From Candidatus Danuiimicrobium aquiferis (GTDB lineage Bacteria > Omnitrophota > Omnitrophia > Omnitrophales > Danuiimicrobiaceae), in NCBI GenBank assembly GCA_001804285.1, contig MHFR01000068.1:34383-98382 (forward strand): DNA of 64,000 nt, read 5' to 3'. The position numbers and the translations under genes are program-made. A model generated the notes under the pieces. That model saw nothing but the letters and a program-made list of their open reading frames with translations. It was not told the origin of the DNA and ran no database searches. Shown piece by piece: positions 8,934 through 30,849 of this stretch (its first letter is position 1; every line of letters starts with the position of its first letter).

Positions 8934-9416
8934 ATGAGGCCGGAAATTGACGATTCCGCGATAGAAACCTGAGGCGAACAAAATGGGTTCATCTATTGAG
9001 GAGTCTTTTTTTATTTCCGAGTGTGAGCTCGGTCGTTCTATCCCGGCGTATTTGTGTCGTTTCTGTGAAAGCAGGAATACGCGTAAAGGGCAGGAATGAC
9101 AAAAACGACAACAACTTAACGAATCCCAACCCGATTAATTCTTTACCAGCGATTTGTTTAAAAATTTCCAATAGGATTTTGGCAAGGCTGAAACTTTTTT
9201 TACGCCCGTCCCCTTGGGGGGGGGGAATATCATTGTAATTTGTGGTTTGAAAAAAACCGAGGACAGTTGTGAAGCATTTACTTGAAAAAAGATTAATTTC
9301 GTGTAATATCTCCGTTGTAAAATTTTCTCCTAATATTGTCATAAAATATTCGCTCAAGAGGCGAAAATTTTGGCACAAATTGGGCACAAGCGATTTTTGT
9401 TCTTTTCAATTTTTTT

Positions 9417-9451
9417 TGTCATTCCCACGCGCTCTTAGCGGGAATCCATGG
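9417..9451 (+). repeat. MITE-like repeat element, degenerate copy (5' hairpin only)
   Basis: tgtcattcccacgcgctcttagcgggaatccatgg matches the 5' module of the tgtcattcccgc...gcgggaatcc family. Confidence 0.5.
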
Positions 9452-9489
9452 TTACAGATTCCCGATAAAAGCACGGCGGAGCAGTGCAG

Positions 9490-13663: not shown

Positions 13664-13760
13664 TGTCATCCCCGCGCAAGCGGGGATCCAGCAGTGCAAA
13701 AGAACTATCGGATAGATTCCCGCCCGCCTGCCGGCGAGGCAGGCTTTCGCGGGAATGACA
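13664..13760 (+). repeat. MITE-like repeat element (complete copy)
   Basis: tgtcatccccgcgcaagcggggatcc...attcccgcccgcctgccggcgaggcaggctttcgcgggaatgaca. It has terminal inverted repeats and internal hairpins. Confidence 0.7.
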
Positions 13761-13915
13761 AAGCGTGCAGAATTTTCACGGATAATAACTTCAAAACGTT
13801 AAACAAATACTGAAACTTGATAAACAAAAATAGATGCGTTGGGTGTATCTCGCGTATATAATGAATATCGGTATTATAATTTGAGGGGCAATCATTAATT
13901 GAAGGAGTTGAAGCT

Positions 13916-14770
13916 ATGAATACCTTTAAAACCATGTTGTTATTAACAGCGATGACGCTGCTTTTTATGTTTGTAGGCGGTGCGATCGGCGGGCGATCGG
14001 GGATGATGACGGCGTTCATGTTTGCCTGTATCATGAATTTAGGATCGTATTGGTTTAGCGATAAAATTGTGTTGGCGATGTATGGAGCAAAACCAATTTC
14101 TGAAGCCGAAGCCCCCGAAATTTATCGGATCGTGAATACCCTTTCTCAGAGGGCAAATGTTCCGATGCCAAAAGTCTACCGGATTCCGACGCATACGCCA
14201 AATGCGTTTGCAACAGGCCGGAATCCTCAGCATGCCGTTGTCGCCGTGACAGACGGGATTTTAGACATATTAAGCGAGGATGAGCTGGCAGGTGTCCTTG
14301 GGCATGAGCTTGGGCACGTGCAGCACCGTGATATTTTGATTGCATCACTTGCCGCAACAATTGCCGGCGCGATTAGCATGCTTGCTTCGATGGCGCGTTG
14401 GGCGTTTATGTTCGGTGGGATTGGAGGACGGGATCGCGAGAATAACGGTCATCCGATTGTTTTTTTGATTTCGGCGATTTTAGCGCCGATTGCGGCCATG
14501 ATGATCCAGTTAGCCATTTCGCGTTCTCGGGAATATGAAGCCGATAAAGCTGGTGCACAATTTTGCGGGAATCCGTTATTTTTGGCGAATGCGCTTCGGA
14601 AACTGGATGCCGGCGTAAAGCGGTTTCCAATGTCAAATGACAGTGCGACAACTGCGCACATGTTTATTGTCAATCCGCTTCGGGGCGGCGGTCTGATGAG
14701 TCTTTTCAGCACGCATCCCCCGATTGAAGAGCGGATTGCACGGCTTGAAAAAATGAGTTACGGCGGGTAG
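13916..14770 (+). CDS. htpX: Membrane zinc metalloprotease HtpX (M48 family)
   Basis: N-terminal TM helices, HELGH zinc motif, and a C-terminus typical of HtpX. Confidence 0.85.
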
Positions 14771-14775
14771 ACGAA

Positions 14776-15453
14776 ATGGCCAGCACTAAAGATTATTATA
14801 AAAGTTTAGGTGTTTCGGAATCGTCAACGGATGACGAAATTAAAAAAGCATATCGGAAACTCGCCGTTAAATATCATCCCGACAAAAATCCAAACAATAA
14901 GCAAGCAGAAGAAAAGTTTAAAGATATTTCCGAAGCTTATTATGTGTTGAGTGATGCCAAGCGGCGCAAAGAATATGACTTAATGAAGAAAGGCGGATTC
15001 CGTTCGGGTTCATTCCACGGCGCAGAAGGCTTTGATTTAAATGAATTTTTGAATGCGGTTCGCGGGCAACGCAGCGGCAGAAAAGGGTTTGGCAGTATTT
15101 TCGATGATTTATTTGGCGAGGATGTTTATTCCTCATCGCAAGGATTTCCGGGCGGGCAAGGCGGCTTCCGGGTTTATACAACGGGGAGTGATCAACCTTT
15201 TCACCAGACACAGGCTCAGAATGAAATGTTGGAAGAAATTGATACAGATATTGATTCGATCGTTTCCATTTCAAAAGATCGGGCATCGAAAGGCGGAAAA
15301 GTTGCGATCCGGAACCGGAGCGGCCAAACCATCAAAGTGGCGATTCCTAAAAACATAAAAGATGGTCAGAGGCTCAGAATTCAAGGTCAAGGGAATGTCT
15401 GCCCCTGTTGTAAAAAAAGGGGAGACTTGTATTTGGCAATTAAGATAAAATGA
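14776..15453 (+). CDS. J-domain (DnaJ-like) co-chaperone protein
   Basis: DYYKSLGV...[15 protein letters not shown] is a J domain with the HPD motif. Gly-rich middle region and a C-terminal CPCC motif. Confidence 0.75.
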
Positions 15454-15577
15454 AATGAGCGCTCAGCTTGCACCTGTCTGTAGACACAGGCGTAAGTTGA
15501 ATGCGCGAATTTTCCGCCACTAAAGCGTTAGAGGATCCGCCAACGTGGTGTGGGGATGACAATGAGTAGGCATATTA

Positions 15578-16150
15578 ATGACGAAAAGGTCTTTGTTGAT
15601 AAAAGTACTGTTAGTGTCGATCTTCATGATGGAAACGGTGTCTATCTCATTTGCAGCTCAACAAGGAAATATGGAGACACGTATGCATAAAATAATTGTG
15701 ACCAGCCCGGCGTTTAAAGATGGCGAAATGATGCCTGAAAAATACACCTGCGACGGCAAAAATATTTCTCCACCTCTTGAATGGATGGATTTACCCATAA
15801 ACACGGAAAGTATCGTTATTGTTGCCGATGACCCGGATGCGCCGATGGGAACATGGGTGCATTGGGTATTATATGATATTCCTCCTTCAGAAGTTTTTAT
15901 AGATGAAGATGTTCCGCCAGTGGGCGTTTTAAATAATGGGGCGACTCACGGAATGACGGATTTTAGAACGATGGGATATGGCGGTCCGTGTCCTCCGAGT
16001 GGCGTACACCGGTATTTTTTCAAGATATATGCTCTCGATGACTTCCTTCATTTGCCGCCCGGTGCGACAAAAGAGCAGATTGAAATGGAAATGGAAGGGC
16101 ATATTGTCGGATATGGCGAATTAATGGGGAAATATCAGAAGAAGCGGTAA
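15578..16150 (+). CDS. YbhB/YbcL-family phosphatidylethanolamine-binding protein (PEBP/Raf-kinase-inhibitor-like), secreted
   Basis: Signal peptide, then SPAFKDGEMMPEKYTCDG...PPLEW...DPDAP...WVHWVLYDIP...GYGGPCPP.GVHRYFFKIYALD is the PEBP signature. Confidence 0.75.
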   Translation: MTKRSLLIKVLLVSIFMMETVSISFAAQQGNMETRMHKIIVTSPAFKDGEMMPEKYTCDGKNISPPLEWMDLPINTESIVIVADDPDAPMGTWVHWVLYDIPPSEVFIDEDVPPVGVLNNGATHGMTDFRTMGYGGPCPPSGVHRYFFKIYALDDFLHLPPGATKEQIEMEMEGHIVGYGELMGKYQKKR

Positions 16151-16160
16151 AAAGTAAAAA

Positions 16161-19103
16161 GTGAAAAGGAAATCATTTCTTTTATCTACCATATTTATTT
16201 GTTTTGTTGGCGTTTATTCTTCCTGCCGGTCCAATTTCGATTTTCTTGTGAGTGATTACCGCTTTGTCCGCGAAGTGGGCGGTGTTCGCGAGTACGAACT
16301 TCAATCTAACGGCCTGCGTGTGCTGCTTGCCGAAGACCATTCCATTCCCGTTGCGACGGTGATGATGACATACCGTGTCGGCTCCCGAAATGAACCCGAA
16401 GGATTGCGCGGCGCGACGCATGTTTTCGAGCATGTGATGTTTAAGGGAACGGAAAAATATAATAAAACGCGAGGGACATCAATTCCGCAAGTTTTGGATC
16501 GTATCGGCGCTTTAATGAATGCGAGTACATGGTCCGACTATACATCCTATTATGAGATATTGTCGAGCGATGGACTTCCGCTCGTGCTCGATATCGAAGC
16601 GGACCGGATGCGTGGACTTCTTCTTGAAAAAAGCGGGTTGGATTCGGAGCGGCGCGTTGTCTTGAGCGAATTTGACCACCTTGAAAATTCTCCGTTGGTC
16701 ATTCTCGACCATGCGGTTCAAAAAGAAGCATTTTTGAAACATCCGTATCGCTTTCCGGTGATCGGCTTACGGACGGATATCGAAAATGTAACCGTTCGGG
16801 ATTTGCGAAATTTTTACGATACGTATTATTGGCCGAATAATGCGGTTCTTGCAGTGGCTGGTGATTTCAAAGAAGGGGATTTACTTCAGAAGATTATCAA
16901 TCTGTACGGCAAAATTCCGCATTCACCGAAAACTATTCCTGAGCCGCACATTCCTGAGCCTGAACAGCAGGGCCGCCGTTTTGTCAGGGTTGAAAAAGAA
17001 GATCGCATCAATGCGGTTTCGATGGTTTATAAATCACCGCGAGGGCAAGATCCTGATACGATTGTATTGGATTTGATCAGCGAAATTCTGAGCCGGGGAA
17101 AGGTGAGCCGTTTGTATCGCGCCTTGGTGGATGAAGGATTGGCCACGGAAGCCGGAGCCGAAGTAGCGAACCGTTACGATCCTGAATTTTTTGAAATCCA
17201 GGCCATTCTTTCCGAGAAAGCCGTGCATCAGGAAGTTGAAGAGCGCATTCTGAAGGTTCTTGATGATGTGAAAGCCGGCGGAGTGACGAAAGATGAACTT
17301 GAGTGGGCAAAAAACAATATCCGGGCACACGCGGCGTATGCACGGGACGGATCGTTTGCTTTTGTCCAGATGTTGAGCGAATTTATCGGTTCCGGTGAGT
17401 GGTCGTATTTTGAAGAGTATCTGAGCCGCATTCAAAATGTTTTGCTTGCAGACATTAAACGGGTAGCAAATCAATATTTTGTTTTCGAACGGCTGACAGC
17501 GGGTTATTTGGTTTCAAAGAAAACGGTCCCTCTTGTATCGATAATTAATTCAGATAACACTTTCTTTCCTCAAACGAATGGCATTGATGAACACATTAAA
17601 AAAAGTGCAGGAGAGAATGCTGTTATGGTTGTTGGTCAATCTGCCAGTGACTTGTCATTCCCGCGGAAGCGGGAATCCATGGATCCCCGCTTACAGCATG
17701 CGGGGATGACAGACGGTGGAACTGTGGACAATGCGAGTACTCTCAAAAATTCCGATCGTATAAGCTGCCGTTTGACGGACCGAATGAGAATAGAGTACAT
17801 CAATGGAATTAAAATCATCAGAGTTAAAACCGGTGTCCGGGATGTTGTGACGATTGCAGGATCCTTCGCCGGCGGAGGAACGGCCTATTCGGAAAATAAA
17901 ATGATTCCCACTCTTACCGTAGAAATGCTTGATAAGGGCACGCAAGGCCGTGATCAATTTGAAATCTCACGGCTTCTCACCAATGTGGGGGCGGAAATTT
18001 CATTTTATTACGATGAGGAACGGGCGGGGTTTAACGTCCGATGCTTAAAGAAAGATATTGCTCTCGTCATGGAGCTTTTGGCGGACGAGTTGCGGAATCC
18101 ATTGTTTGATGCGAAAGAATTTGAAAAACAAAAAGTGCGACGAGAGGTATCGATTCGTGAACAAATGAGTTCCGCTCCGGAGCAAGCGGCGATTTATTTC
18201 TCTCGAGCCGTTTATTCACCGGTCCACCCGCATTATAAAATTTCTTTGGAGGAGGAATTAAAGGAGCTGAGCAATATTTCTGTGAATGATGTGCGTAAAT
18301 TTTATAAAATGAATTATGGGTCGCAGAATATGGTATTTTCGGCCGTCGGAGATGTTGAATTTGGAGAATTTAAAAAAATAGCGGAAAAATATTTTGGCGA
18401 TTGGGAAATGAAAAATAATCCGGAGCAAACAGACGGTAAGGTGGCGGTGAACGGGGAGGGAATAAGAAAAGTGATCTCTATCCCGGACAAACCCAAGGTG
18501 GATGTGATCTTGGGCCACGGACTTCCTCTTGATCGAAAAAGCGAGGATTTCCTTCCTGTTTATCTTTCGAATTTGGTTTTGGGCGGCCCTTTCTCGTCGA
18601 GGCTTGTTTCAACGGTGAGGGATGAGAAAGGCTTGACTTATGCGATTCAATCCAAAATTTCAGGCGTCGAAAAAGGTATTCAAGGAGATTGGCGTATCCA
18701 TTTAATTTTAAATCCGGATAATTTAGAACAGGGAATTAATGAAACAAAAAAACAAATCGAGTTATTTCAGAAGAATGGCGTGACGCAAACAGAACTTGAT
18801 CAAATTAAGCAAACCGTAGCGGGTGAATTCAAAGTCAGCCTGTCCACGACAGGCGGTTTTTCGGCGCAAATATTGCGAAGCGAAGAACTGGGATTGGGCG
18901 TTGGATATCTCGATCAATTCCTTGATCTTATCAATCAAGTGACCTTGGATCAAGCGAATCAAGCGATCCGGAAATACCTTCATCCGGAAGCGCTTCATGT
19001 TGTGATTGCGGGAAGCGTGGAAGGGGAAATAAAAAGGGAAAAGATAAAACCCAATGTCCAAATCCCGATGACCAAGAAAAATTTCAATGTATCAAATCCG
19101 TAA
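16161..19103 (+). CDS. Tandem-M16 (pitrilysin-family) zinc peptidase, ~980 aa, with a repeat-encoded peptide in the inter-domain linker
   Basis: GTG start and signal peptide. The HVFEHVMFKGT inverted zinc motif (HxxEH) in the N-half. A second inactive M16 half. The repeat element at 17653-17711 is translated in frame (SFPRKRESMDPRLQHAGMT). Confidence 0.8.
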   Translation: MKRKSFLLSTIFICFVGVYSSCRSNFDFLVSDYRFVREVGGVREYELQSNGLRVLLAEDHSIPVATVMMTYRVGSRNEPEGLRGATHVFEHVMFKGTEKYNKTRGTSIPQVLDRIGALMNASTWSDYTSYYEILSSDGLPLVLDIEADRMRGLLLEKSGLDSERRVVLSEFDHLENSPLVILDHAVQKEAFLKHPYRFPVIGLRTDIENVTVRDLRNFYDTYYWPNNAVLAVAGDFKEGDLLQKIINLYGKIPHSPKTIPEPHIPEPEQQGRRFVRVEKEDRINAVSMVYKSPRGQDPDTIVLDLISEILSRGKVSRLYRALVDEGLATEAGAEVANRYDPEFFEIQAILSEKAVHQEVEERILKVLDDVKAGGVTKDELEWAKNNIRAHAAYARDGSFAFVQMLSEFIGSGEWSYFEEYLSRIQNVLLADIKRVANQYFVFERLTAGYLVSKKTVPLVSIINSDNTFFPQTNGIDEHIKKSAGENAVMVVGQSASDLSFPRKRESMDPRLQHAGMTDGGTVDNASTLKNSDRISCRLTDRMRIEYINGIKIIRVKTGVRDVVTIAGSFAGGGTAYSENKMIPTLTVEMLDKGTQGRDQFEISRLLTNVGAEISFYYDEERAGFNVRCLKKDIALVMELLADELRNPLFDAKEFEKQKVRREVSIREQMSSAPEQAAIYFSRAVYSPVHPHYKISLEEELKELSNISVNDVRKFYKMNYGSQNMVFSAVGDVEFGEFKKIAEKYFGDWEMKNNPEQTDGKVAVNGEGIRKVISIPDKPKVDVILGHGLPLDRKSEDFLPVYLSNLVLGGPFSSRLVSTVRDEKGLTYAIQSKISGVEKGIQGDWRIHLILNPDNLEQGINETKKQIELFQKNGVTQTELDQIKQTVAGEFKVSLSTTGGFSAQILRSEELGLGVGYLDQFLDLINQVTLDQANQAIRKYLHPEALHVVIAGSVEGEIKREKIKPNVQIPMTKKNFNVSNP
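17653..17711 (+). repeat. MITE-like repeat element inserted inside the M16 peptidase ORF without breaking the frame
   Basis: tgtcattcccgcggaagcgggaatccatggatccccgcttacagcatgcggggatgaca. No stop codon occurs in the host reading frame. Confidence 0.7.
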
Positions 19104-19176
19104 TTGGGTATTTATCTTTTTGGGATTTATTTGTGTCATTGAGATTTGGTCATTGCGCTTTTTAGAATCAACAAAA

Positions 19177-19228
19177 AAGGGGACAGGCATATGACTCAAA
19201 TTGAGCAATTGCCTGGCCCCTTTTTTTT
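19177..19228 (+). terminator. Rho-independent terminator downstream of the M16 peptidase gene
   Basis: aaggggacaggca...tgcctggcccc (10/11-bp stem) followed by tttttttt. Confidence 0.6.
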
Positions 19229-19374
19229 GTGACTAATGTCTAGTGACAAATTTTTCGTTTCACAAAAACTTTCCCCTTTACATTATTTTTTTAATTTCTA
19301 TAATAAACAGCAGTTACAAATTGATCTTTTAAACATTCGCCTTTATGGCGTAAGGTGCTTTGAGCAAATGCCCA

Positions 19375-19600
19375 AAGCTTAATAGGGAAGAGAGCCATGC
19401 GACGCTGATATCGATTTTTATTTGAAGCGTTGCAAGGACTCCACGGTGCCGCCGCTGTCGGCAAGAACGAAAGCGAAAAAACCACTGTTCTGACATTGTC
19501 GGAATGGGAAGGATCGCGAGTAGGTGAAGTGCTTGCCAGTCAGAAGACCTACCTTGATACATCAAAACATCTCCGAGCAGAGAACGAATAGTTGGGTTTT
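19375..19600 (+). promoter_or_regulatory. Candidate cobalamin (B12) riboswitch aptamer in the leader of the TonB-dependent receptor / btuFCD-like operon
   Basis: AATAGGGAAG...GGTGCCGCCGCTGTCGG...AACCACTG...GGGAAGG resemble the conserved AGGGAA / GGTGCC / GCCACTG (B12-box) / GGGAAGG elements. It lies in a 550-nt leader before a BtuB-like receptor. Confidence 0.5.
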
Positions 19601-19606
19601 ATTTTT

Positions 19607-19657
19607 CCCCTTTTGTTTTGTCTCTTGTCTGGAGATGAAACGAAAGGGGTTTTTTTA
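19607..19657 (+). terminator. Expression-platform hairpin plus T-run (terminator that sequesters the RBS) immediately before the receptor start codon
   Basis: ccccttt...aaagggg stem followed by ttttttt, then ATG at 19657. The SD-like aaagggg lies in the 3' half of the stem. Confidence 0.5.
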
Positions 19658-22014
19658 TGTCCAGGAACGAGCTATTCCTGAATAAATGTGATTCAGTATT
19701 CCGGTTTTTTCATCAAAGTTCAGCAGTTTTGTCATCCCCGCGGAAGCGGGGATCCGGCAATTTTAGATTCCCGCTTAAAGCATGCGGGAATGACACGATT
19801 CATGTTTTCAAAATTGTTTGTTTTTTCTTGTCTCTTTTTTTAAGCGTTTCTATTTTTGCCTTCGCAAAAACAGAAACACCCAAACCAACCGTCACTCAAA
19901 CAAACCAAAACGGTGACGTCAAAAAATCCGCACAAAAACCCGTCGCCGAAGTCACCGTGATTGCGTCGCGACTGCCGAGTTTTCAACAAAAACTCAACGA
20001 TATGCCGTCCAATATCACCTATAAAGATAAAACAGAACTGAATAAAACCCATCCCGCGACATTTCAAGATGCGGTTCGCGATACGGAAGGGGCCATTTTT
20101 TATGACCAAGTTGGAAACGGAGTTGATACGACATTCAGTTTGAGAGGATTTAATGAAGGAAATGCGGTGACTTTTATAGTGGATGGTGTTCGGGTGAACG
20201 AAGTAGATGGTGATGCTGTGAATTACCCTTTAGTTTCAATGAATGATATCGAGTCAATTCAAATTGAAAGAGGTTCCTCATCAGCCATTTATGGTAGTAA
20301 TGCGTTTGCGGGAGTTGTGAATATTACCACAAGAAAGCCAAGCGCTAAGAAGATTAGTGTTTTTGGTGGAGTTGAACTGTCCAGTTTTATGGGGATCAAA
20401 TTTAATCAAGGAATAAGCGGAAGCATTCCCGATAAAATAACACCGTTAAATGGTAAATGGACATACTATTTTAATGGCGGCCGCGATCTTAATCAGGGTT
20501 TTCGAGCTGATGGTGATTGGCGAATTACAAATTTTGACATAAAAACAGGATATGAATTAGCGGACAGTCAGGGCGGGGTTCGCGTTGGAGTCAAGCATGT
20601 TGTTGATGCTATTTCAAATCCCGGTTTTTTAACGATTCCCGAATATCATGCAGATTCAATGCAAACGAAAAATCCGCTCGATGGTCGGAAGTTTGATAAT
20701 ACAATTGTGCAAATCAGTGCAGATAAGAAATTTTTGGATGACCGGATTACTGCCAGCTTGATGAATAATTGGCGATATAATTTGATCAAGTTTTATACAA
20801 CAGCGCGCACAATGGCGGATGGAGCCTTTAATCCGGACACAGATTTGACGACTACGCGTTCTCGGGCAACGGATCTGGTCTGGCAATTAGGTTACAGTGA
20901 TCGTTGGGATTGGGTCGGGAATGATACGTTACTTGGAATGGAATTTCGGGATGCTGCACAATATGATCTTGAGCAAGATGCGTTTCAAGGGATAGTGGTT
21001 GATAATAGTCCGGCCGAGACCAATCGGAACGCAAAGCCTCGTTCCGGGGCACTGTTTTGGAGACAAAACGTATCATTTTTTGACCGGATTAATTTTCATT
21101 ATGGAATGAGGCATGATTATGTATGGCTGAAGAATCAAGATAAAGTAGCACCGGTAAATAATTTCTCTAAACGATGGAACGATTCTACACTATCGACAGG
21201 TGTTGCGCTGAAACCGTGGTCATTAGCTGATTTTTTCTGGAATTATTCACAAGGTTTTCGAGCACCTGCTATTAGTGATTTAGCGCCATGGTCGGAATGG
21301 GGGGGCTCGGGTGTTTCTTACAATCTTGCGCCTGAAAAATCGGATAGTTATGAAGCAGGTACTCGGCTGAGATTACATCCTCGGGCGAATGTAAAATTGA
21401 GTTATTTTCTCATCGATATGAAAAATGAAATTGCTTACTCGCTAGGAGTCGGTGAGAATATTAATATCGGACGAACCCGTCGTTATGGGACTGAATTCCG
21501 TTTGGATACAAATCCTATTGAAGAAATGATTTTTTACGGTGTGCATACTTGGACGAATGCGTATGTGCGTGAAATAGATGATAATTTTAATCAAACCGTG
21601 GATGGCAGAACGATTGGGATGATTCCTGAACAGCAGTTCGTGTTTGGCACAACAGCAAAACCGTTCAAGAGGTTAGGAGAATATTGGGATAAGTTTGAAA
21701 TCGGTATGAACGGTACATTGACAGGGAAGCAGCATCCAGTTGGATTTGAATCGTCCACCGAAGCGAGATTGGATAGTACAAGCCATTGGATTAAAGCATA
21801 TCAGATTTGGAATTTTATCTGTCAATATGAATTCCATGGAATCCAGACATATTTCAAAATTAATAACATTTTTGATCAACGATATTATAATCGTGCTATT
21901 GCGGCGTCGAACTCAGCGTTTTCCCCCTCTTCGCTTACGCCCCCAGGGACTCATTATTTTGTTACTCCTGGAGCGCCCAGGGAATTTGTCATTGGAACGA
22001 AGTGGGAGTTTTGA
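19657..22014 (+). CDS. TonB-dependent outer-membrane receptor (BtuB-like) whose N-terminal leader contains a translated repeat element
   Basis: TonB-box-like EVTVIA, plug domain (FSLRGF...VDGVRVNE...IEIERGSSSAIYGSNAFAGVVNI), beta-barrel, and C-terminal ...GTKWEF. The repeat at 19730-19795 is in frame before the hydrophobic signal segment. No in-frame ATG lies downstream of the repeat. Confidence 0.75.
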   Translation: MSRNELFLNKCDSVFRFFHQSSAVLSSPRKRGSGNFRFPLKACGNDTIHVFKIVCFFLSLFLSVSIFAFAKTETPKPTVTQTNQNGDVKKSAQKPVAEVTVIASRLPSFQQKLNDMPSNITYKDKTELNKTHPATFQDAVRDTEGAIFYDQVGNGVDTTFSLRGFNEGNAVTFIVDGVRVNEVDGDAVNYPLVSMNDIESIQIERGSSSAIYGSNAFAGVVNITTRKPSAKKISVFGGVELSSFMGIKFNQGISGSIPDKITPLNGKWTYYFNGGRDLNQGFRADGDWRITNFDIKTGYELADSQGGVRVGVKHVVDAISNPGFLTIPEYHADSMQTKNPLDGRKFDNTIVQISADKKFLDDRITASLMNNWRYNLIKFYTTARTMADGAFNPDTDLTTTRSRATDLVWQLGYSDRWDWVGNDTLLGMEFRDAAQYDLEQDAFQGIVVDNSPAETNRNAKPRSGALFWRQNVSFFDRINFHYGMRHDYVWLKNQDKVAPVNNFSKRWNDSTLSTGVALKPWSLADFFWNYSQGFRAPAISDLAPWSEWGGSGVSYNLAPEKSDSYEAGTRLRLHPRANVKLSYFLIDMKNEIAYSLGVGENINIGRTRRYGTEFRLDTNPIEEMIFYGVHTWTNAYVREIDDNFNQTVDGRTIGMIPEQQFVFGTTAKPFKRLGEYWDKFEIGMNGTLTGKQHPVGFESSTEARLDSTSHWIKAYQIWNFICQYEFHGIQTYFKINNIFDQRYYNRAIAASNSAFSPSSLTPPGTHYFVTPGAPREFVIGTKWEF
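19730..19795 (+). repeat. MITE-like repeat element inside the 5' coding region of the TonB-dependent receptor gene
   Basis: ttgtcatccccgcggaagcggggatccggcaattttagattcccgcttaaagcatgcgggaatgaca. Confidence 0.7.
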
Positions 22015-22601
22015 TGAGGAAGAATCAAATTGCTATTTTTGTGGTGATGCTTTTTGTGGCGGTATTTTTATTGGCCATGATGTTTATTCCTCTCATTTCA
22101 GCTCAGGAGGGAATTGTCGTGCCGGCGAGAATAGTTCCGGAACCGGTAGCCCAAAAAGGAAATACAGAGTTGGTGGCTGATGTCATTCCCGCAAGCCTTG
22201 GGCGGGAATCTCTGGATCTTGGATTCCCGACACCCAAGGAAAAATTGGGCCGGTCCGCCCTGTCCCGCGGGAAGACATTCGGGAATGACAGGAAAGATAG
22301 AGCTCAAACATCTTCCTTCACACTTCCTTACCTTGAATCCATCCCAAAACCGGTTCCGTACCCCCGATCGGCCATTCGCCATGAACTGGAAGGGAAAGTC
22401 GTGATGGCGCTTGAAATTCTGAAGGACGGATCAGTCGGCCGTTCGCATATGGCGAACTCTTCCGGTTTTGCCATATTGGATAAGGCGGCGATGAATGCTG
22501 TTAAAACGTGGGAATTTCATCCGGCGCTGAAAAGCGATAAACCAATTGTGGAATATATTGAAGTGCCTGTGAGTTTTGAACTGGAGGGGAATGGTTCTTA
22601 A
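22002..22601 (+). CDS. tonB: Energy transducer TonB (N-terminal TM anchor plus C-terminal TonB_C domain) with an in-frame repeat element
   Basis: TM helix IAIFVVMLFVAVFLLAMMFIPLI. C-terminal LEGKVVMALEILKDGSVGRSHMANSSGFAILDKAAMNAVKTWEFHP is the TonB_C fold pattern. The 110-bp repeat at 22181-22290 is translated in the linker. Confidence 0.7.
   Translation: MGVLMRKNQIAIFVVMLFVAVFLLAMMFIPLISAQEGIVVPARIVPEPVAQKGNTELVADVIPASLGRESLDLGFPTPKEKLGRSALSRGKTFGNDRKDRAQTSSFTLPYLESIPKPVPYPRSAIRHELEGKVVMALEILKDGSVGRSHMANSSGFAILDKAAMNAVKTWEFHPALKSDKPIVEYIEVPVSFELEGNGS
22181..22290 (+). repeat. MITE-like repeat element (110 bp) inside the tonB ORF without breaking the frame
   Basis: tgtcattcccgcaagccttgggcgggaatctctgg...gacattcgggaatgaca. 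It reads through as ...IPASLGRESLDLGFPTPKEKLGRSALSRGKTFGNDR... Confidence 0.7.
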
Positions 22602-22608
22602 ATTTAAT

Positions 22609-22679
22609 GGTCATTCCCGCCTCCCTGGAAATACAGGGCTGGCCCTCGTCTTACCGAGGGAAGATTTGCGGGAATGACA
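22609..22679 (+). repeat. MITE-like repeat element (intergenic)
   Basis: ggtcattcccgcctccctggaaatacagggctggccctcgtcttaccgagggaagatttgcgggaatgaca. The terminal inverted repeats enclose two internal hairpins. Confidence 0.7.
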
Positions 22680-22698
22680 GATAACCCATTATTCAAAT

Positions 22699-23625: not shown

Positions 23626-24302
23626 AAGCATTTATTTCGTGGAGCGGGGGGAAAGATAGCGCGTTATCGTGTCATCGGGTGATGCAGAATTTAGGCATTC
23701 ACGTTACACATTTCTTAAATATGCTTACCGAAGATGGCACGCGGTCCCGCTCTCACGGCCTTGAACCGGCGTTGCTGCAATTGCAGGCAAAGGCCGCCGG
23801 AGTTGCACTTGTCCAGGGAAAAGCGGGATGGGATGATTACGAAAAAGAATTTAAAAAAGCCATTTTAGAATTAAAAAAGGAAGGCGTCGAGGCCGGTGTG
23901 TTTGGCGATATCGATCTCCAGCCGCATCGTGATTGGGTTGAAAGAGTTTGCAAAGAGACAGGAATTCGCGCGATTCTTCCGATTTGGAATGAAGGCCGGG
24001 AAAAATTGTTGGATGAATTTATCGATGCTGGATTTCGCGCGAAGATTGTTGTGGCGGATTCTAAATATTTGGATGATAGTTGGCTTGGGTGCGAGATTGA
24101 CCGCGAGTTTATCAAAAAAGCCAAAGCATACGGAAAGATCGATCTTTGCGGCGAAGGCGGCGAATATCATACGTTTGTGTGTGCCGGCCCGATTTTTGAA
24201 AAGCCAGTTGAGTTTACAGAAGAAAAAAAAGTTTTAATCGGCGGGACGCATTGGTGTTTGGCGCTTAAGGTTGGGAACGGTGCAAAAAATGGTAATTATT
24301 AG
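23622..24302 (+). CDS. MJ0570/Dph6-related PP-loop ATP pyrophosphatase (diphthine-ammonia-ligase-like domain)
   Basis: FISWSGGKDS PP-loop at the N-terminus and the GEGGEYHTFV motif. ATGA start/stop overlap with the upstream gene. Confidence 0.65.
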   Translation: MKAFISWSGGKDSALSCHRVMQNLGIHVTHFLNMLTEDGTRSRSHGLEPALLQLQAKAAGVALVQGKAGWDDYEKEFKKAILELKKEGVEAGVFGDIDLQPHRDWVERVCKETGIRAILPIWNEGREKLLDEFIDAGFRAKIVVADSKYLDDSWLGCEIDREFIKKAKAYGKIDLCGEGGEYHTFVCAGPIFEKPVEFTEEKKVLIGGTHWCLALKVGNGAKNGNY

Positions 24303-24322
24303 AACGGGTTTCATAAATCTCT

Positions 24323-24432
24323 GTCATTCCCGCAAGCTTTTGGCGGGAATCTATAAACGTCTTCGTCACAATGCATTGAGAGTCGGATCCGCCTCTGGCG
24401 GAGATTCCCGACTAAAGCTTTCGGGAATGACA
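24323..24432 (+). repeat. MITE-like repeat element (110 bp, intergenic)
   Basis: tgtcattcccgcaagcttttggcgggaatc...tcggatccgcctctggcggagattcccgactaaagctttcgggaatgaca. Confidence 0.7.
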
Positions 24433-24446
24433 TCTTTGGAGTTTGG

Positions 24447-25301
24447 ATGATCAGTTTTAAAAAGATACCTGTAATTACTCTTCTATTTATTGTTTCCTTC
24501 GTGCTCAGCAGGCAATTGTTCGCACAAGAAGCATATCCCAAACGCATCATTTCCCTCGGCCCTGCCATTACGGAATCACTTTATCTTCTAAATGCCGGCG
24601 ACCGGATTGTCGGGAACACGATTTATTGTGAAAGGCCGGAGGCGGCAAAGAAGAATGAAAAAATCGGAACGGTTGTCGAAATCAATTTGGAAAAAATCGT
24701 TTCGCTCGAGCCCGATTTGATTATCGCGACCTCTTTGACGAATTCTCAAGCGAAGGAAAAGTTAAAAATGCTTGGACTTCGTGTGGTTGAAATTTCACAA
24801 GCCCAAAGTTTTGGGGACCTTTGCGATAATTTTATTAGGCTTGGAGAAATTGTCGGGCAAAAACAATTAGCGGAGGAGATTACCGCCACCGCAAAGAACG
24901 AAGTGACTTCCTTGAAAGCGAAAACGGAAGCGTTGCCTAAGCCTACGGTTTTTCTACAACTTGGGATGAAACCATTGGTGACAGTGACCCAGGACTCCTT
25001 TATGAATGATTATATTGAATTTGCCGGAGGCGTGAACATTGCGAAAGGAATCGGGAGGCCGCTTTATTCAAAAGAAAAGGTGGCTGCCAGTAACCCAGAT
25101 GTGATTATTGTGGTAAGTATGGGAACCAATAATGCGGAAGAAGAGAAAAAAAACTGGGAAAGTTACCAGGAATTAAAAGCCGTTCAAAAAAAGCGTATTT
25201 ATATTATCGATTCGAATCCTCTTTGCAGTCCGACCCCCGTTAGTTTTGTGGCGGCTTTGCAAAATGTTATCCACCTTTTACATCCCGACGATGAACAATA
25301 A
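24447..25301 (+). CDS. ABC transporter periplasmic substrate-binding protein, class III (BtuF / Fe-siderophore type)
   Basis: Signal peptide, then KRIISLGPAITESLYLLNAGDRIVG and LEPDLIIA motifs typical of BtuF/FhuD-like binding proteins. Confidence 0.75.
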   Translation: MISFKKIPVITLLFIVSFVLSRQLFAQEAYPKRIISLGPAITESLYLLNAGDRIVGNTIYCERPEAAKKNEKIGTVVEINLEKIVSLEPDLIIATSLTNSQAKEKLKMLGLRVVEISQAQSFGDLCDNFIRLGEIVGQKQLAEEITATAKNEVTSLKAKTEALPKPTVFLQLGMKPLVTVTQDSFMNDYIEFAGGVNIAKGIGRPLYSKEKVAASNPDVIIVVSMGTNNAEEEKKNWESYQELKAVQKKRIYIIDSNPLCSPTPVSFVAALQNVIHLLHPDDEQ

Positions 25302-26292
25302 AATCACCAAATGGGTTTTTTGGGTGTTGTTCCTAACAAGCATCACGATCGGTGTGGTGATCTGGTCTTTGACGGTTGGCTCTTCCGGGATTCCCGCAGG
25401 GAAAGTTTTCACCGTTTTATTCCGGGGGACGGCCGGGCCCGAATATGACATTATTTTTAATATTCGTTTGCCGCGGATCATTTTAGGATTTGCGATTGGC
25501 GGCGCATTGAGTCTTGCGGGAATCCTTTTACAGGGAATGTTCCGGAATCCGTTGGTGGAACCGTACACGTTGGGAATTTCGGGCGGGGCCGGGCTTGGTG
25601 TTTCATTGAATATTCTTTTGGGTTTCTATCAAATAGGTGTTTTGACTTTGCCTTTTTCCGGCTTTTTAGGAGCGATTGTTGTCCTGGCGATCGTCTATGT
25701 TTTGAGTTTGCGAAGAGGATCCTCGCAGCTTCAGGGTTTGCTTCTGACAGGGGTGATGATGAGCTTCGTTTGTTCGTCCGTCATGATGTTAATCATGGCG
25801 ATTTCGCGGACAGAAGATCTTCACGGGATCATTTTCTGGGTGATGGGTTCCTTGGAAGAATCGAACTGGTTGATGATTAAAATCACGCTGATTGTATCGG
25901 TCTTCTTTTTGGTGATAGCTCATTTTTTTTGTCTCGACCTGAACGCCTTGTCTTTGGGGGAAGAAGAGGCGCAGCATCTTGGTATTCATGTTGAGAGGAC
26001 GAAACGCCTCCTTTTTATTATGACGTCGCTCTTGACGGGATTTTGTGTTTCCGTCGCGGGAATTATCGGATTTGTGGGCCTCGTAGTGCCGCATTTCATC
26101 CGGGTATTTATCGGAAACGATCACCGAGTATCGCTTGTCGCTGCATTTTTAGCCGGCGGTGCTTTTTTGATTTTTTGCGACACATTGGCAAGAACGATGA
26201 TTGCTCCGCTTGAATTACCGGTGGGTGTGATTACCGGAATCATCGGCGGCGGCCTTTTTATTTATATGTTAGCGAAACGCGGGAAACGGTAA
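25291..26292 (+). CDS. FecCD-family ABC permease (BtuC-like)
   Basis: Multi-TM protein with RLPRIILGFAIGGALSLAGILLQ and the C-terminal GxIGFVGLVVPH motif. The start was chosen at ATG 25291 (a further upstream ATG at 25246 is possible). Confidence 0.75.
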   Translation: MNNKITKWVFWVLFLTSITIGVVIWSLTVGSSGIPAGKVFTVLFRGTAGPEYDIIFNIRLPRIILGFAIGGALSLAGILLQGMFRNPLVEPYTLGISGGAGLGVSLNILLGFYQIGVLTLPFSGFLGAIVVLAIVYVLSLRRGSSQLQGLLLTGVMMSFVCSSVMMLIMAISRTEDLHGIIFWVMGSLEESNWLMIKITLIVSVFFLVIAHFFCLDLNALSLGEEEAQHLGIHVERTKRLLFIMTSLLTGFCVSVAGIIGFVGLVVPHFIRVFIGNDHRVSLVAAFLAGGAFLIFCDTLARTMIAPLELPVGVITGIIGGGLFIYMLAKRGKR

Positions 26293-26299
26293 GGGAATC

Positions 26300-27079
26300 A
26301 TGGTGCTGACGATCAATCATTTAACGTGCGGGTATGGCCGGAAAATTGTGCTTGATGATATTCATTTTTCTATTCAGAAGGGCGAATTCCTGGGAATTAT
26401 TGGGCCGAATGGCTCGGGAAAAACGACACTTCTACGATCGTTGACGAGAGTGGTTCAGCCGGTAAAAGGGGAAATTCTTTTTGAAGGGGAAGCGGTCGGG
26501 GCGATCCAACCGAAGCAGCTTGCTAAAAAAATCGCCGTGGCCTCGCAATCTTTATTTGAACCTCATATGCTTGTCGAGGATTTTGTCCTTTTAGGGAGAA
26601 TCCCGCATTATCAGAGTTTTCAATTATTAGAAACGAAAAAGGATTTTGAGGTTGCGGAAAGAGTGATGCGGTTAGCCGGCGTGAGCGATCTTCGAAATGC
26701 TTTTATGGACGAGATCAGCTCTGGAGAGAGGCAGTTAGTGGTGATTGCCCGCGCTCTCGCGCAGGAACCCAGCCTGCTTCTATTGGATGAGCCGACAGCG
26801 CATTTGGATATTACGCATCAGGTTCAAATCATGGATTTAATCAAGCGATTGAATCAAACGCTGGGCCTGACCGTGATTGTCGTTTTGCACGACCTTAATT
26901 TAGCAAGTGAGTATTGCCGCCGGCTTCTTTTAATTAAGAGCGGCCGGGTTCATAAACTCGGTGAGCCCCGGGACGTATTGAACGCTCAGACCATTGAAGA
27001 AGTTTATCGAACACGGGTGCATGTAGAAAAAAATCCGCTTTCTTCTAAACCCTATATATTGTTGACGAGCGAAGAATAA
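26300..27079 (+). CDS. ABC transporter ATP-binding protein (BtuD/FecE-like)
   Basis: Walker A GPNGSGKTT, signature SGGERQ, and Walker B LLLLDEP. Confidence 0.8.
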   Translation: MVLTINHLTCGYGRKIVLDDIHFSIQKGEFLGIIGPNGSGKTTLLRSLTRVVQPVKGEILFEGEAVGAIQPKQLAKKIAVASQSLFEPHMLVEDFVLLGRIPHYQSFQLLETKKDFEVAERVMRLAGVSDLRNAFMDEISSGERQLVVIARALAQEPSLLLLDEPTAHLDITHQVQIMDLIKRLNQTLGLTVIVVLHDLNLASEYCRRLLLIKSGRVHKLGEPRDVLNAQTIEEVYRTRVHVEKNPLSSKPYILLTSEE

Positions 27080-27124
27080 AATTGGGGTACCTATTATAGC
27101 GTTCTGAAGGTGACTATCGCCCTC

Positions 27125-27200
27125 ACTCTTCCGCCAAACAGCGCGTCGGATCCGCCTCTGGCGGAAACCCTCTCCCAGAGGGAGAGGGCAGGGGTGAGGG
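27125..27200 (+). repeat. Partial repeat-family fragment plus a perfect 9-bp hairpin
   Basis: tcggatccgcctctggcgga is identical to the internal segment of the element at 24323-24432. It is followed by ccctctccc-aga-gggagaggg. Confidence 0.45.
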
Positions 27201-27294
27201 TGATTTGTTAGCCCTGATTTCTCATCGTTAATAAGAAATTCCGCTCGTAAGAGTTGCGGTGCAAAGATGTTTGCGTCTTTGCGTCGCAGGGCTT

Positions 27295-27395
27295 ATCTTT
27301 TGCGCCCTGATTTAATAAGGGCGCAAAACTTTGGGCGTAACTTATTGCGCCCAAAGCGACTTTCTCGTCGATTCACAAAATCGATGAGAAAGTCG
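27295..27395 (+). promoter_or_regulatory. Cluster of mutually exclusive overlapping hairpins (attenuator-like) in a 550-bp intergenic leader
   Basis: gcgccc-tgatttaataa-gggcgc, gggcgcaa...ttgcgccc and tttgggcg...cgcccaaa share halves. Then a 13-bp stem ctttctcgtcgat/atcgatgagaaag. Confidence 0.35.
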
Positions 27396-27564
27396 GGTTA
27401 GTTAGTTCAAAATACTCATATAGATACATAGTTGTTTGTGGCTTTTTCGTCCATGGATTAAAATATGCCCTCACTATTGCAATTCCTGGTTTCAGCGGGT
27501 AAACTTTGGATTGTAGAGCGAAATCGAGAGAAGATTCTTTAACGAAAGTTAAGAATCTTTATTT

Positions 27565-27605
27565 TTTGAACGTTGATTGAAATTGTTGATAATCGTTGAT
27601 AAAAA
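27565..27605 (+). promoter_or_regulatory. Three direct repeats of (G)TTGAT(AA) at ~10-11-bp spacing upstream of the HTH gene / secretion operon
   Basis: acgTTGATtgaaatTGTTGATAAtcGTTGATAAaaacg, 30-70 nt upstream of the start at 27632. Confidence 0.35.
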
Positions 27606-27631
27606 CGCAGTAACAACCTTACTTCGCTGAT

Positions 27632-27841
27632 ATGATCAAAGACGAAATTCTGACCCTCAAACAAGTCGCGATATTTTTAAAAGTAAGCCCTCTGACGATT
27701 CACCGTCTTACCAAAAAAGGAATCCTTCCCGGCGTGAAGATCGGAAATCAATGGCGCTATTGGCGTAAAAATATCGAGGTGATTTTGAAAAATCCGGAAA
27801 CATTGTCACAAGCCATGATGAAAAAACGAAAGGTTGCATGA
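27632..27841 (+). CDS. Excisionase/AlpA-family helix-turn-helix DNA-binding protein
   Basis: 69 aa. LTLKQVAIFLKVSPLTIHRLTKKGILPGVKIGNQWRY is an HTH_17-type motif. Confidence 0.65.
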   Translation: MIKDEILTLKQVAIFLKVSPLTIHRLTKKGILPGVKIGNQWRYWRKNIEVILKNPETLSQAMMKKRKVA

Positions 27842-28311
27842 TAATGAGGAATTGGGAATCGCTTTTAGGTACTCTTATTTATATTCTCGCCGCACTCATT
27901 GCGGCGCTTGCTGTGGTACAGCTTGTTGTGACGCCATTCAGGTTAGGCAGCCAAAAGTCAAGCGGCCATGCGTTAAGTTCGATTGATTCATTCCGGATGA
28001 CGAAATTGAAACCGTTGGAAGCATATAAGAGTGATTTTGCGAGCCATGCTCTTTTTTCAAAACTCAGAGTTGCCGTTGTTCCGAAAGGTCCGACGATAGA
28101 TGATTTACTCAAGCAATATTCGATTAACGGAATTATTCAAGGAGCGGTTCCGGATGTTTTGATTATGAATAATAGAACAAGACAAACGCAGATTTTGAGC
28201 GCCGGGCAAAGTTTCGATCAATTTAAAATCATACAAATTAAACAGCATTCCATCATGGTTGAATATCAAGGGCAACAAAAAGAACTATTTATTGCGGAGG
28301 GGCAACAATGA
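27838..28311 (+). CDS. Membrane-anchored protein, possibly a PilP/GspC-like secretin-associated component
   Basis: N-terminal TM helix LIYILAALIAALAVVQLVV. It lies immediately upstream of, and overlaps, the secretin gene. No strong motif was found. Confidence 0.4.
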   Translation: MIMRNWESLLGTLIYILAALIAALAVVQLVVTPFRLGSQKSSGHALSSIDSFRMTKLKPLEAYKSDFASHALFSKLRVAVVPKGPTIDDLLKQYSINGIIQGAVPDVLIMNNRTRQTQILSAGQSFDQFKIIQIKQHSIMVEYQGQQKELFIAEGQQ

Positions 28312-30548
28312 AAACGGTAACGGAAAAAATAACTGCAATGCTGATTGCTTTCGTATTGATTTGGATGGCGCCGGTTCCTCTCTACGCACAGGGATTTGAT
28401 CCGCCGCAACAGAACTCGAACAGTGATCAATCCGGTAGTAATGCGGATCCCACAACTCAATTTGGTAGTAATGTGGATCCCACAGCGTTGCAGATGGATG
28501 TTTCCATACCGGATGCAACCGGAATGGGTCAACTGCCGGTGATGAATATGGAGCCCGGTTCGGACAGCCAGCGGATTACACTGGAACTCAAAGGAGTGGA
28601 TGTCCTGGATGTCCTTAAAATCCTTTCAAGCCGGTCCGGTCTTAATATTGTTGCCGGGAAGAATGTGCGGGGGCAGGTAACCATTTATCTGAAAGATGTT
28701 TTGATTCAGGAAGCCCTTGATACGATCGTTGCCGCCCTTGGCCTTGCCTATGAGGAGGAACAGGGAATTATCAAGGTCATGACGGATAAGGAATATGAAG
28801 CTATGTACGGCCGGATTTTCCGTGACCGTCGCGTGACAAAGACATTTAAGATTAAATATGCCGAACCGACGACGATTCAACAGGTGCTTCAGCAGCTCAA
28901 AGGGCCGCAGGGGAAAATTATTCTGGATGAACGGACGAATACATTAATTATACAGGACCTTCCTGAAATTATTGATGAAATTGAAAACGCGATTTCCGAG
29001 TTAGATCAGAAATTAGTGACAAAAGTATACAAACTGCAATATGCGCCGGTTGAGGATTTGGAAGAAAAGCTTTCGACTTTTTTAACGCCGGAAACGGGTG
29101 TCATTAAAATTGATCCGCGCACGAATATGGTGACGGTGACAGATCGCGAGGAAAAGATCCAGATGATCGATGAAATCGTAAAAGCGTTTGATAAAAGACC
29201 CAAGCAGGTATTAATCGAAGCACAAATAATCGAAGTTCAGCTTTACGATGCGTACAGATTTGGAATCGATTGGGATTATGTGAGAAGCCAAATGGGACAG
29301 CTGAAGGATGTTAACATCCAGCCAGGGTATGGAGTTCCTGTTGTTCCGGGATCTACTGGAGGTGGAGGGACACTGACGTCAATTACTGTTGGAGAAACTG
29401 GGATGGCCGGGCTCAGTAATATGGTAATTCGTATTTTGCAGAACGTCGGCAAAACAAATACATTGGCATCTCCGCGTTTGTCCGTTCTCAATAATGAAGA
29501 AGCAAAATTGGCTGTAACGACGAAGGAACCATATATCGTGTCGGACACGACGTATGCGACTTCCGGGTCATCTTCAGTGCCTTATGTAGCAGAAAAACCG
29601 GAATTTGTGGATGTCGGAGTAGCGCTATCGGTTGTCCCGACCATTTCTGATGATAATACGATTATTTTGAAGATTAAACCTGAAGTGAGCAATACGAATG
29701 CTCCCGACTTTGAATACGATACAGCGGCAGGTACTGTGGATACGGCCATATCAAGATCTATTCCGGTTGTAGCTTCTCAAACACTTGAAACAACGGTTAT
29801 CGTTAAATCCGGTGAAACTATTATTCTTGGTGGATTGATTAATGATTCAGAATCTAAAACAAGGGAGAAAGTGCCTGTTTTGGGTGATATTCCGGTTATC
29901 GGGGCTTTGTTTAGAAAAACATCAGATACATTTACGAAAGATGAATTAGTTATTTTTCTTACGCCGCATATTATTTCTGGAGATGCTAGTTCCAGTGAGC
30001 AGGCGAAGTATCTTGATAATAACGGTCGCTTAATCAATTTTGATAAAGCGGGAGGTTATGACTTTGGGTTGGCCCAAAAACATTCACAAGGGGCGGCAAG
30101 GATTGATAACCGGCCGTATTGGAAAATCGATAAGCCAAAATGGCCGCAATATGCAATTCCACCGGATGTTTATACGCGATCAAAACCGTATGCGGATCGT
30201 ATGAATGAATTTGAAGGAGGAAAGGAAGGGAAAGTTATTCCGCCGAAGGAGACACTCATCGATGAATACCAGCAGCAAGTCGGGGCGCAGGTGTCTGCGA
30301 GTCTGGAAGCTGTTGAGGAAATTCAAAGTTTGGAAGGCAATATGGATTTGGCTTTGACCATCCGGAGAGACGGCGTGCTTGAAGAGGTTTCCTTTATCGA
30401 TGTCGGGCCGGTCAAAAAACGGGACGTGCGATACAAGATTTTGGATGCGATTAAAGGAGCCGGACAATTTCCGGCATTTCCGAAGGGGTTGGATTCGGCG
30501 AAAGAAACTTTGGATTTGAGGTTTGAGTTGGAGAGTGAAAAGATATAA
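28308..30548 (+). CDS. Secretin (GspD/PilQ family) with a ~190-aa C-terminal extension resembling a TonB_C domain
   Basis: Secretin N-domains (LELKGVDVLDVLKILSSRSGLNIVAG...) and the C-terminal secretin core VPVLGDIPVIGALFRKTSDTFTKDELVIFLTPHII. The extension ...LTIRRDGVLEEVSFIDVGPV...ILDAIKGAGQFPAFPKG...LDLRFELE has the TonB_C-like pattern. Confidence 0.8.
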   Translation: MKTVTEKITAMLIAFVLIWMAPVPLYAQGFDPPQQNSNSDQSGSNADPTTQFGSNVDPTALQMDVSIPDATGMGQLPVMNMEPGSDSQRITLELKGVDVLDVLKILSSRSGLNIVAGKNVRGQVTIYLKDVLIQEALDTIVAALGLAYEEEQGIIKVMTDKEYEAMYGRIFRDRRVTKTFKIKYAEPTTIQQVLQQLKGPQGKIILDERTNTLIIQDLPEIIDEIENAISELDQKLVTKVYKLQYAPVEDLEEKLSTFLTPETGVIKIDPRTNMVTVTDREEKIQMIDEIVKAFDKRPKQVLIEAQIIEVQLYDAYRFGIDWDYVRSQMGQLKDVNIQPGYGVPVVPGSTGGGGTLTSITVGETGMAGLSNMVIRILQNVGKTNTLASPRLSVLNNEEAKLAVTTKEPYIVSDTTYATSGSSSVPYVAEKPEFVDVGVALSVVPTISDDNTIILKIKPEVSNTNAPDFEYDTAAGTVDTAISRSIPVVASQTLETTVIVKSGETIILGGLINDSESKTREKVPVLGDIPVIGALFRKTSDTFTKDELVIFLTPHIISGDASSSEQAKYLDNNGRLINFDKAGGYDFGLAQKHSQGAARIDNRPYWKIDKPKWPQYAIPPDVYTRSKPYADRMNEFEGGKEGKVIPPKETLIDEYQQQVGAQVSASLEAVEEIQSLEGNMDLALTIRRDGVLEEVSFIDVGPVKKRDVRYKILDAIKGAGQFPAFPKGLDSAKETLDLRFELESEKI

Positions 30549-30603
30549 GGCGTATCTATTTAGCGTTTTGAAGTAATTATTTGTAAAAGGTTTTCAACTT
30601 TTT

Positions 30604-30801
30604 TGTCATTCCCGCGAAAGCGGGAATCCAGACGCCGCTTTGGGCTCCCCGGACTTGTCCGGGGGGGAATGGCGCCCGAAGGGCGAGCCGAGCAGGGAAA
30701 GAGAAAATTCCCAGCGAGGCCAGATGTTGAAAGGTGCCCCGGGCTTGCCCGGGGGGAAACCACAAGCCATGGATGCCCGCTTAAAACATGCGAGCATGAC
30801 A
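30604..30801 (+). repeat. Long (~200 bp) member of the MITE-like repeat family with extra GC-rich internal hairpins
   Basis: tgtcattcccgcgaaagcgggaatcc...ccccggacttgtccggggggg...ccccgggcttgcccgggggg...cccgcttaaaacatgcgagcatgaca. Confidence 0.65.
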
Positions 30802-30849
30802 CAAGTTGACGTATTTGCTACTTCAAAGCGCTAAAAAGATACGTGTAAG

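Follow-up and report, generated by a model that had tools for sequence, protein, structure and literature searches.

Here we describe a family of short hairpin repeats in a 64,000-nucleotide stretch of DNA, hereafter the window, from the Omnitrophota groundwater bacterium Candidatus Danuiimicrobium aquiferis (contig MHFR01000068.1, positions 34,383 to 98,382). The window matches positions 34372-98371 of MHFE01000007.1 (GCA_001805325.1; the Rifle aquifer metagenome-assembled genome (MAG) RIFCSPLOWO2_12_FULL_44_17), is about 44% G+C with a GC skew that is strongly positive throughout, and carries nearly all of its genes on the + strand. A preliminary description had likened the repeats to miniature inverted-repeat transposable elements (MITEs) that share the orientation of their flanking genes. 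We consider it very probable that they are instead head-to-head dimers of a hairpin unit of the SRM/NTS type (SRM, Ssn-related motif; NTS, Neisseria Transformation Sequence), that is, repetitive extragenic palindromes (REPs) of the CGTC-1 family, and that they are selfish or neutral passengers rather than classical transposase-derived MITEs. The copies in the window (nt, nucleotides; ORF, open reading frame) are as follows.

9417-9488, +: degenerate head-to-head dimer upstream of tRNA-Leu; 5' unit TGTCATTCCCAC-GCGCTCTTA-GCGGGAATCC, 3' unit decayed
13664-13760, +: intergenic dimer of 97 nt, flanked by the ETF-QO and M48 peptidase genes; + strand unit with a 4-nt loop (GCAA), - strand unit with a long loop
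17653-17711, +: dimer of 59 nt within the M16 peptidase ORF
19730-19795, +: dimer of 66 nt (22 codons) within the TonB-dependent receptor ORF
22181-22290, +: dimer of 110 nt within the TonB ORF
22609-22679, no definable polarity: single long hairpin of 71 nt (GGTCATTCCCGC ... GCGGGAATGACA) a little 3' of the TonB stop codon
24322-24432, +: intergenic dimer of 111 nt with two 9-nt-loop units, AAGCTTTTG and AAGCTTTAG, and a mini-palindrome, TCGGATCCGCCTCTGGCGGA, in its spacer
30604-30801, +: intergenic dimer of 198 nt, flanked by the secretin and T2SS-F genes and enclosed by an outer inverted repeat (30559-30574 and 30820-30835)
2258-2284, +: degenerate single arm (TGTCATTCCCGA...)
15533-15561, -: degenerate single arm (...GTGGGGATGACA on the + strand)

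It can be seen that all eight full copies reported previously are present, far beyond chance, at lengths of 59-198 nt (first given as 60-200 bp); the copy placed at 24323 begins at 24322, and that at 9417 is degenerate. The partial copies did not all stand up, as there is just one decayed arm each at 2258 and 15550, and the one at 27140 is another, 20-nt mini-palindrome that does not belong to this family. The inverted termini that the copies were said to share, TGTCATYCCCGC and GCGGGRATGACA, occur 17 times in the window at no more than one mismatch, against 0.54 expected, and when folded as DNA every full copy read forms a stable hairpin (z -3.7 to -6.8). The copies in the M16 peptidase and receptor genes recur, with identical gene products, in three assemblies that stem from different samples; the 9417 unit recurs in the assembly of a further sample (locus L125). 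The repeats are therefore not artefacts of assembly. The copies are clustered, all of them falling at 2-31 kb of the window, with none found at 31000-64000 or in the 7.5 kb beyond the window end. They group around outer-membrane and transport genes (a receptor-TonB-BtuF/FecCD/ABC cluster) and the secretin gene, which recalls the Neisseria NTS clusters beside membrane-protein genes.

The unit has the form TGTC-AT(Y)CCCGC-loop-GCGGG(R)AT-CC and its partner is an equivalent unit on the opposite strand, head-to-head; seven of the eight copies are such dimers if the decayed second unit of 9417 is allowed for, the remaining one being the long hairpin at 22609. An internal 5' hairpin with a gNaa loop had been ascribed to the whole family. 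This applies to four copies (13664, 17653, 19730 and 30604), whose 5' unit has a GNAA loop, and not to the others, since 9417, 22181 and 24322 have a 9-nt loop at that place and 22609 is a single hairpin. In the remaining units the loop has 9 nt (for example ATGCTTTAA or AAGCTTTWG) or more. Because each dimer puts one unit on each strand, the element is nearly symmetric, and its 'orientation' rests solely on differences between the two units in the loop or in one base of the stem.

Family identity and distribution of the unit

Judged by its sequence, the unit belongs to the known CGTC/TGTC-tagged REP family CGTC-1, which takes in the dRS3/NTS repeats of Neisseria, RPE-6 of Rickettsia and the SRM. 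As described, CGTC-1 units have a CGTC or TGTC head, a stem of 8 bp whose first bases are AT, a loop of 4 nt and a tail of the form CCA; head-to-head dimers, often heterodimers, predominate, some copies are intragenic, and the family is the same as Neisseria dRS3 and Rickettsia RPE-6 and has no known or dedicated transposase (Di Nocera, De Gregorio and Rocco, 2013, PMC3733652). The 5' units at 13664, 17653, 19730 and 30604 share these features, reading TGTC-AT(Y)CCCGC-GNAA-GCGGG(R)AT-CCA/CCG, and the 9-nt-loop units are variants of them. The window differs from the published family in the prominence of heterodimers of unequal loop length (4 + 9 nt) and in the nesting of a dimer in a second inverted repeat, and the survey of five phyla did not take in Omnitrophota (PMC3733652).

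We also searched the window with the published SRM pattern, HGTCWYN(0-2)YYVSBRHN(0-5)WNVSBRGN(0-2)RNCYNB (PMC11893778), and found seven matches (five on the + strand and two on the - strand), compared with a mean of 0.12 in 100 Markov-1 simulations; the + unit of the 13664 copy is among the units that fit it. The strict Neisseria NTS consensus, CGTCATTCCCGCGMAVGCGGGAATCYRG, has no exact match in the window; however, the 5' unit of the 30604 copy, TGTCATTCCCGCGAAAGCGGGAATCCAG, agrees with it at 27 of 28 positions, the sole difference being base 1 (T for C).

The exact 5' unit was then looked for in one genome per species, giving at least 119 loci, and the 9-nt-loop unit in metagenomes, giving at least 113 loci. 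Among the genome matches listed the exact unit occurs in nearly every bacterial phylum, including groups of the candidate phyla radiation, Planctomycetota, Chloroflexota, Bacteroidota, Pseudomonadota, Rickettsia and Tisiphia, and in cultured isolates. These loci hold at least 61 dimers and at least 113 solo units, and most of the listed genomes have a fully symmetric element, TGTCATTCCCGC-GAAG-GCGGGAATCCAG ... CTGGATTCCCGC-CTTC-GCGGGAATGACA. What is new here is an Omnitrophota member of a repeat family that was already known and has lately been explained, and the scans add to the published evidence that a unit of 25-28 nt, together with the gene ssn (see below), is found nearly unchanged across almost all bacterial phyla. 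One exact unit, TGTCATTCCCGCGCAGGCGGGAATCCAG, comes from a 3.8-kb contig that was assigned to a Nanoarchaeota MAG (locus L040, JAHIPG010000372.1), which could reflect a binning error or a true archaeal occurrence.

Association of the unit with the Ssn nuclease

When the 3393 ORFs of the listed genome loci were clustered all-against-all, a GIY-YIG (PF01541) protein of about 95 amino acids, Ssn, was found to recur by the units, and its gene lies near units in ten fetched loci. In four unrelated genomes read in detail (L018, L065, L067 and L082) ssn sits exactly between two units, an independent reproduction of the published NTS-ssnA-NTS architecture. Six more ssn genes near units came from the metagenome scan; the ssn starts of L131 and L187 adjoin a unit, and L143, L206, L212 and L230, which were viewed at a coarse level, have ssn near units.

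Ssn proteins are small and have a single GIY-YIG domain (cd10448). SsnA is a 94-amino-acid GIY-YIG nuclease whose site is the oriented NTS, generalised as the SRM (Chenal et al., 2025, PMC11893778). SsnA binds the hairpin in single-stranded DNA (ssDNA) but not in RNA, is confined to one of the two strands, and cleaves a few nt upstream; the biochemistry was carried out with the Neisseria and Wolbachia proteins, and 71% of ssn homologs have SRMs nearby, 42% being flanked on both sides (PMC11893778). The window units are like this system in their fit to the NTS consensus and the SRM pattern, in combining a hairpin with a directional 5' head, in the C that follows the palindrome and in their clustering, and identical units flank ssn on both sides in other genomes. 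They are unlike it in that many of their loops are 9 nt or longer, and their host is an Omnitrophota groundwater bacterium. Since Ssn cleavage is reported not to need a particular loop identity or length (PMC11893778), the polarity that loops define in the window dimers is probably functionless. For the same reason loop type lost ground as a candidate for a functional polarity.

We propose that each unit, with its (T/C)GTC head, its 8-bp stem ATYCCCGC/GCGGGRAT, its loop of 4 to 9 or more nt and its CC tail, would as ssDNA be a recognition site for an Ssn that binds one strand and nicks a few nt 5' of the hairpin. By analogy with the published system, the host presumably has, or had, an Ssn able to act on the window copies. 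The dimers may have spread through an ssDNA-based process tied to 'IS-like' elements of the form ssn-unit-ssn, and they are most likely selfish or neutral passengers, not regulators. A copy that lands in a gene would persist only where its length keeps the frame, where that frame reads without a stop and where the site tolerates the added residues, as in linkers and in the part of a signal peptide that precedes its hydrophobic core. In this way a puzzling repeat of a candidate phylum can be assigned to a described system, with no new mechanism needed.

Several observations weigh against this explanation. The head of the units is TGTC where the strict NTS consensus has CGTC, although a change from CGTC to TGTC is common within the family (PMC3733652). 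No ssn homolog was detected in the 64-kb window by tblastn with four Ssn proteins, and none was seen in about 17 kb of flanking sequence, so that the action of Ssn on the copies of Ca. Danuiimicrobium aquiferis can be put forward only as an inference. Two of the three intragenic copies, at 59 and 110 nt, are not multiples of three, and the inserted segments must therefore differ by one or two bases from the motif boundaries. Finally, all seven window copies with a definable polarity are '+', which is a mild oddity.

A wider search for Ssn homologs gave 7978 matches, none attributable to the host MAG, and many of these ssn genes sit on very short contigs; the absence of ssn from a bin would accordingly mean little. 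We noted that contigs often stop within a few hundred bases of ssn and that many homologs lie on contigs of less than 1 kb, and the flanking repeats therefore seem to break assemblies. Among Rifle groundwater contigs (L242-L251) there is one case in which an Ssn homolog and the end of a Bro-N domain gene overlap.

Orientation of the copies and rival explanations

The preliminary description had taken the orientation of the copies relative to the + strand genes as strict. However, the contig also carries two clear copies that are reversed, 3.4 and 4.9 kb before the window begins (at 6148-6211 and 4627-4690 of locus L124). Around both of them the flanking genes are on the + strand and the GC skew is still positive, and both are homologous to the 30604 copy, outer inverted repeat included. 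The combined tally is then 7:2 (binomial p ~0.18), or 4:2 if polarity is defined by the gNaa loop. Elsewhere, solo units among the genome loci listed are co-oriented with their flanking genes in 36 cases and anti-oriented in 37, and heterodimers of the window type in other genomes, scored with crude ORF calls and a sign convention checked on the window, have neighbouring genes on their own strand once ('++') and on the other strand nine times ('--'); local GC skew at those heterodimers is positive in 11 cases and negative in 13. We conclude that there is no true orientation rule for the dimers and that the uniform polarity within the window is a small-sample effect. Strand specificity, the other explanation offered at the outset, survives as a property of the family, as Ssn reads one DNA strand; it fails as a source of orientation bias in the element, because the units form head-to-head pairs.

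A rival explanation for the repeats is that they are GNRA-tetraloop hairpins selected in the sense direction of operons, where they would terminate or stabilise transcripts, serve as processing sites or make translation pause. The window copies would all be transcribed, lying as they do within or between co-directional genes, their hairpins are stable, four of them have GNAA loops, and REPs in general have been reported mostly downstream of genes (PMC3733652). The preliminary description had favoured selection at the RNA level on the strength of co-orientation, and it is this basis that fails: reversed copies occur between + strand genes upstream of the window, solo units elsewhere are sense and antisense in near-equal numbers, and window-type heterodimers elsewhere are mostly antisense. 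In addition, Rfam at its gathering threshold reports only a tRNA and the cobalamin riboswitch in the window, with no match at the repeats, and the characterised partner, Ssn, binds ssDNA and does not bind the RNA form (PMC11893778). We therefore regard a role at the RNA level as improbable.

It is equally doubtful that dimers of the Ssn type have been recently and unusually active in this lineage, the shared polarity of seven neighbouring copies, on a leading strand with strong skew, being a local footprint of replication-coupled, strand-specific insertion by Ssn. This possibility is suggested by the presence of three of the eight copies in coding DNA, compared with 2% in Neisseria meningitidis (PMC11893778). 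If it were correct, it would be the first genomic evidence of Ssn elements transposing like IS200/IS605 elements. A related and similarly doubtful reading is that the 22 codons inserted in the riboswitch-controlled B12 receptor's signal peptide have acquired a regulatory role.

A REPIN/RAYT system, in which REP doublets are moved by a domesticated tyrosine (HUH) transposase of the IS200/IS605 type on the lagging-strand template, is much less likely again. The architecture is equal, with inverted doublets of REP hairpins as in REPINs and BIMEs, a partner that recognises ssDNA and a partner gene flanked by its own repeats, and coupling to replication would account for local polarity on a leading strand whose skew is strong. 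Yet REPINs and BIMEs have a GTAG head and an HUH tyrosine transposase, whereas the repeats here have a TGTC/CGTC head and a GIY-YIG nuclease; no RAYT flanked by CGTC repeats is found in the literature (PMC3733652), no Y1 transposase family recurs near the units in the genome loci listed, and polarity does not follow GC skew.

The idea of classical MITEs, deletion derivatives of an insertion sequence that a DDE transposase, recognising the terminal inverted repeats, moves in trans, accounts for the inverted termini, the range of lengths and the variable interiors, but is hardly credible, as none of the 10 copies read shows a target-site duplication or shared flanking bases, the 'terminal repeat' is itself a self-complementary REP unit that is also found alone, no transposase family recurs among the genome loci listed (where ssn is the only gene bounded by the element), and no transposase flanked by CGTC repeats was found by Di Nocera et al. 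either (PMC3733652). What remains of the MITE-like description is a dispersed family of small inverted-repeat elements.

Copies inside three genes and neighbouring repeats

The genes that carry intragenic copies, and the riboswitch among them, are as follows.

16161-19103, +: M16 (pitrilysin-type) peptidase, four-domain, 980 amino acids, intact on both sides of the insert
19336-19570: cobalamin riboswitch (71.7 bits), upstream of the receptor-TonB-BtuF/FecCD/ABC cluster
19657-22014, +: TonB-dependent receptor, 785 amino acids, downstream of the cobalamin riboswitch
22014-22601, +: TonB, 195 amino acids as called, its ORF open from 22002

We found that, as described previously, three copies lie within ORFs in frame and without stops, in a linker of the M16 peptidase, a linker of TonB and the leader of the receptor, and the host genes are intact. 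These in-frame insertions are real, but they have a precedent: Rickettsia RPEs (of which RPE-6 is CGTC-1, PMC3733652) are likewise small palindromes tolerated in frame at permissive gene positions, and identical units occur in Rickettsia and Tisiphia genomes (L099 and L073). The internal sequences of the Rickettsia elements differ from ours, and the window host is not an insect endosymbiont like the hosts of L073 and L099. The three are nevertheless clean cases outside Rickettsia of hairpin repeats translated within intact proteins, and peptides such as SFPRKRES and AGMT can be used in annotation to flag such inserts. Four of the six reading frames of the short copies are open. With a coding fraction of about 0.87-0.92, the low intragenic share of three copies in eight fits the loss of disruptive insertions and the survival of in-frame ones at permissive sites.

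In the M16 peptidase the insert comprises amino acids 498-517, LSFPRKRESMDPRLQHAGMT, and falls in a variable, unconserved linker between the halves of the protein. In an alignment with 13 homologs, which are 40-46% identical and mostly from Omnitrophota, all four domains are intact. An allele free of the insert was not found, as all members of the cluster carry it and the closest other homologs are about 45% identical. In the near-identical sibling MAG RIFCSPHIGHO2_12_FULL_44_12 the gene is called as two pieces of 145 and 821 amino acids (P0242 and P0243), reflecting either a frameshift or stop in the sibling population or an assembly error.

In the receptor the insert follows a conserved N-terminal motif (MSRNELF...) and precedes the signal peptide's hydrophobic core. 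The motif, M-[SFH]-[GRE]-N-x-[HL]-F, is found in 14 of 120 receptor homologs (13 besides the near-identical P0121) and matches the ORF start at 19657. Nearly all of the other motif-bearing homologs are without the 22 repeat-encoded residues, which identifies the 66-nt dimer as an in-frame insertion in the signal peptide; one, P0161, carries an insertion of unrelated sequence at roughly this position. A start 3' of the repeat, at an ATT codon or at a frameshifted ATG at 19802, was considered and rejected because homologs share the N-terminal motif that begins at 19657. Many Omnitrophota receptors (P0138-P0235) have the motif about 10-25 residues before the hydrophobic core, in what looks like an extended leader. 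In TonB, the insert comprises amino acids 60-97, after the N-terminal membrane helix and ahead of the TonB_C domain (amino acids 118-194).

Other repeats are also present on the contig. The outer inverted repeat, CGTATYTRTTTAGCGYTTTGAAGT ... ACTTCAAARCRCTAAAWAGAYAC, surrounds some of the hairpin dimers to give a composite, at least about 190 nt long, that is found in both orientations; its arms lie at 30559-30574 (-), 30820-30835 (+) and 13788-13803 (+), and around 4580-4760 and 6100-6270 of locus L124. The 20-nt mini-palindrome is identical at 24383-24402, where it forms part of the dimer spacer, and at 27146-27165, where it stands alone. A second, unrelated family is a double hairpin, TTTGGGCGTAACTTATTGCGCCCAAAG followed by GCGACTTTCTCGTCGATTCACAAAATCGATGAGAAAGTCGGGTTAG, with at least three copies on the contig in both orientations (27318-27401 of the window, and 3709-3754 (-) and 5977-6022 (+) of locus L124). 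Lastly, a run of about 11 G (ccccttgggggggggggaata) is found at 9210-9226, in the intergenic stretch ahead of the tRNA-Leu locus.

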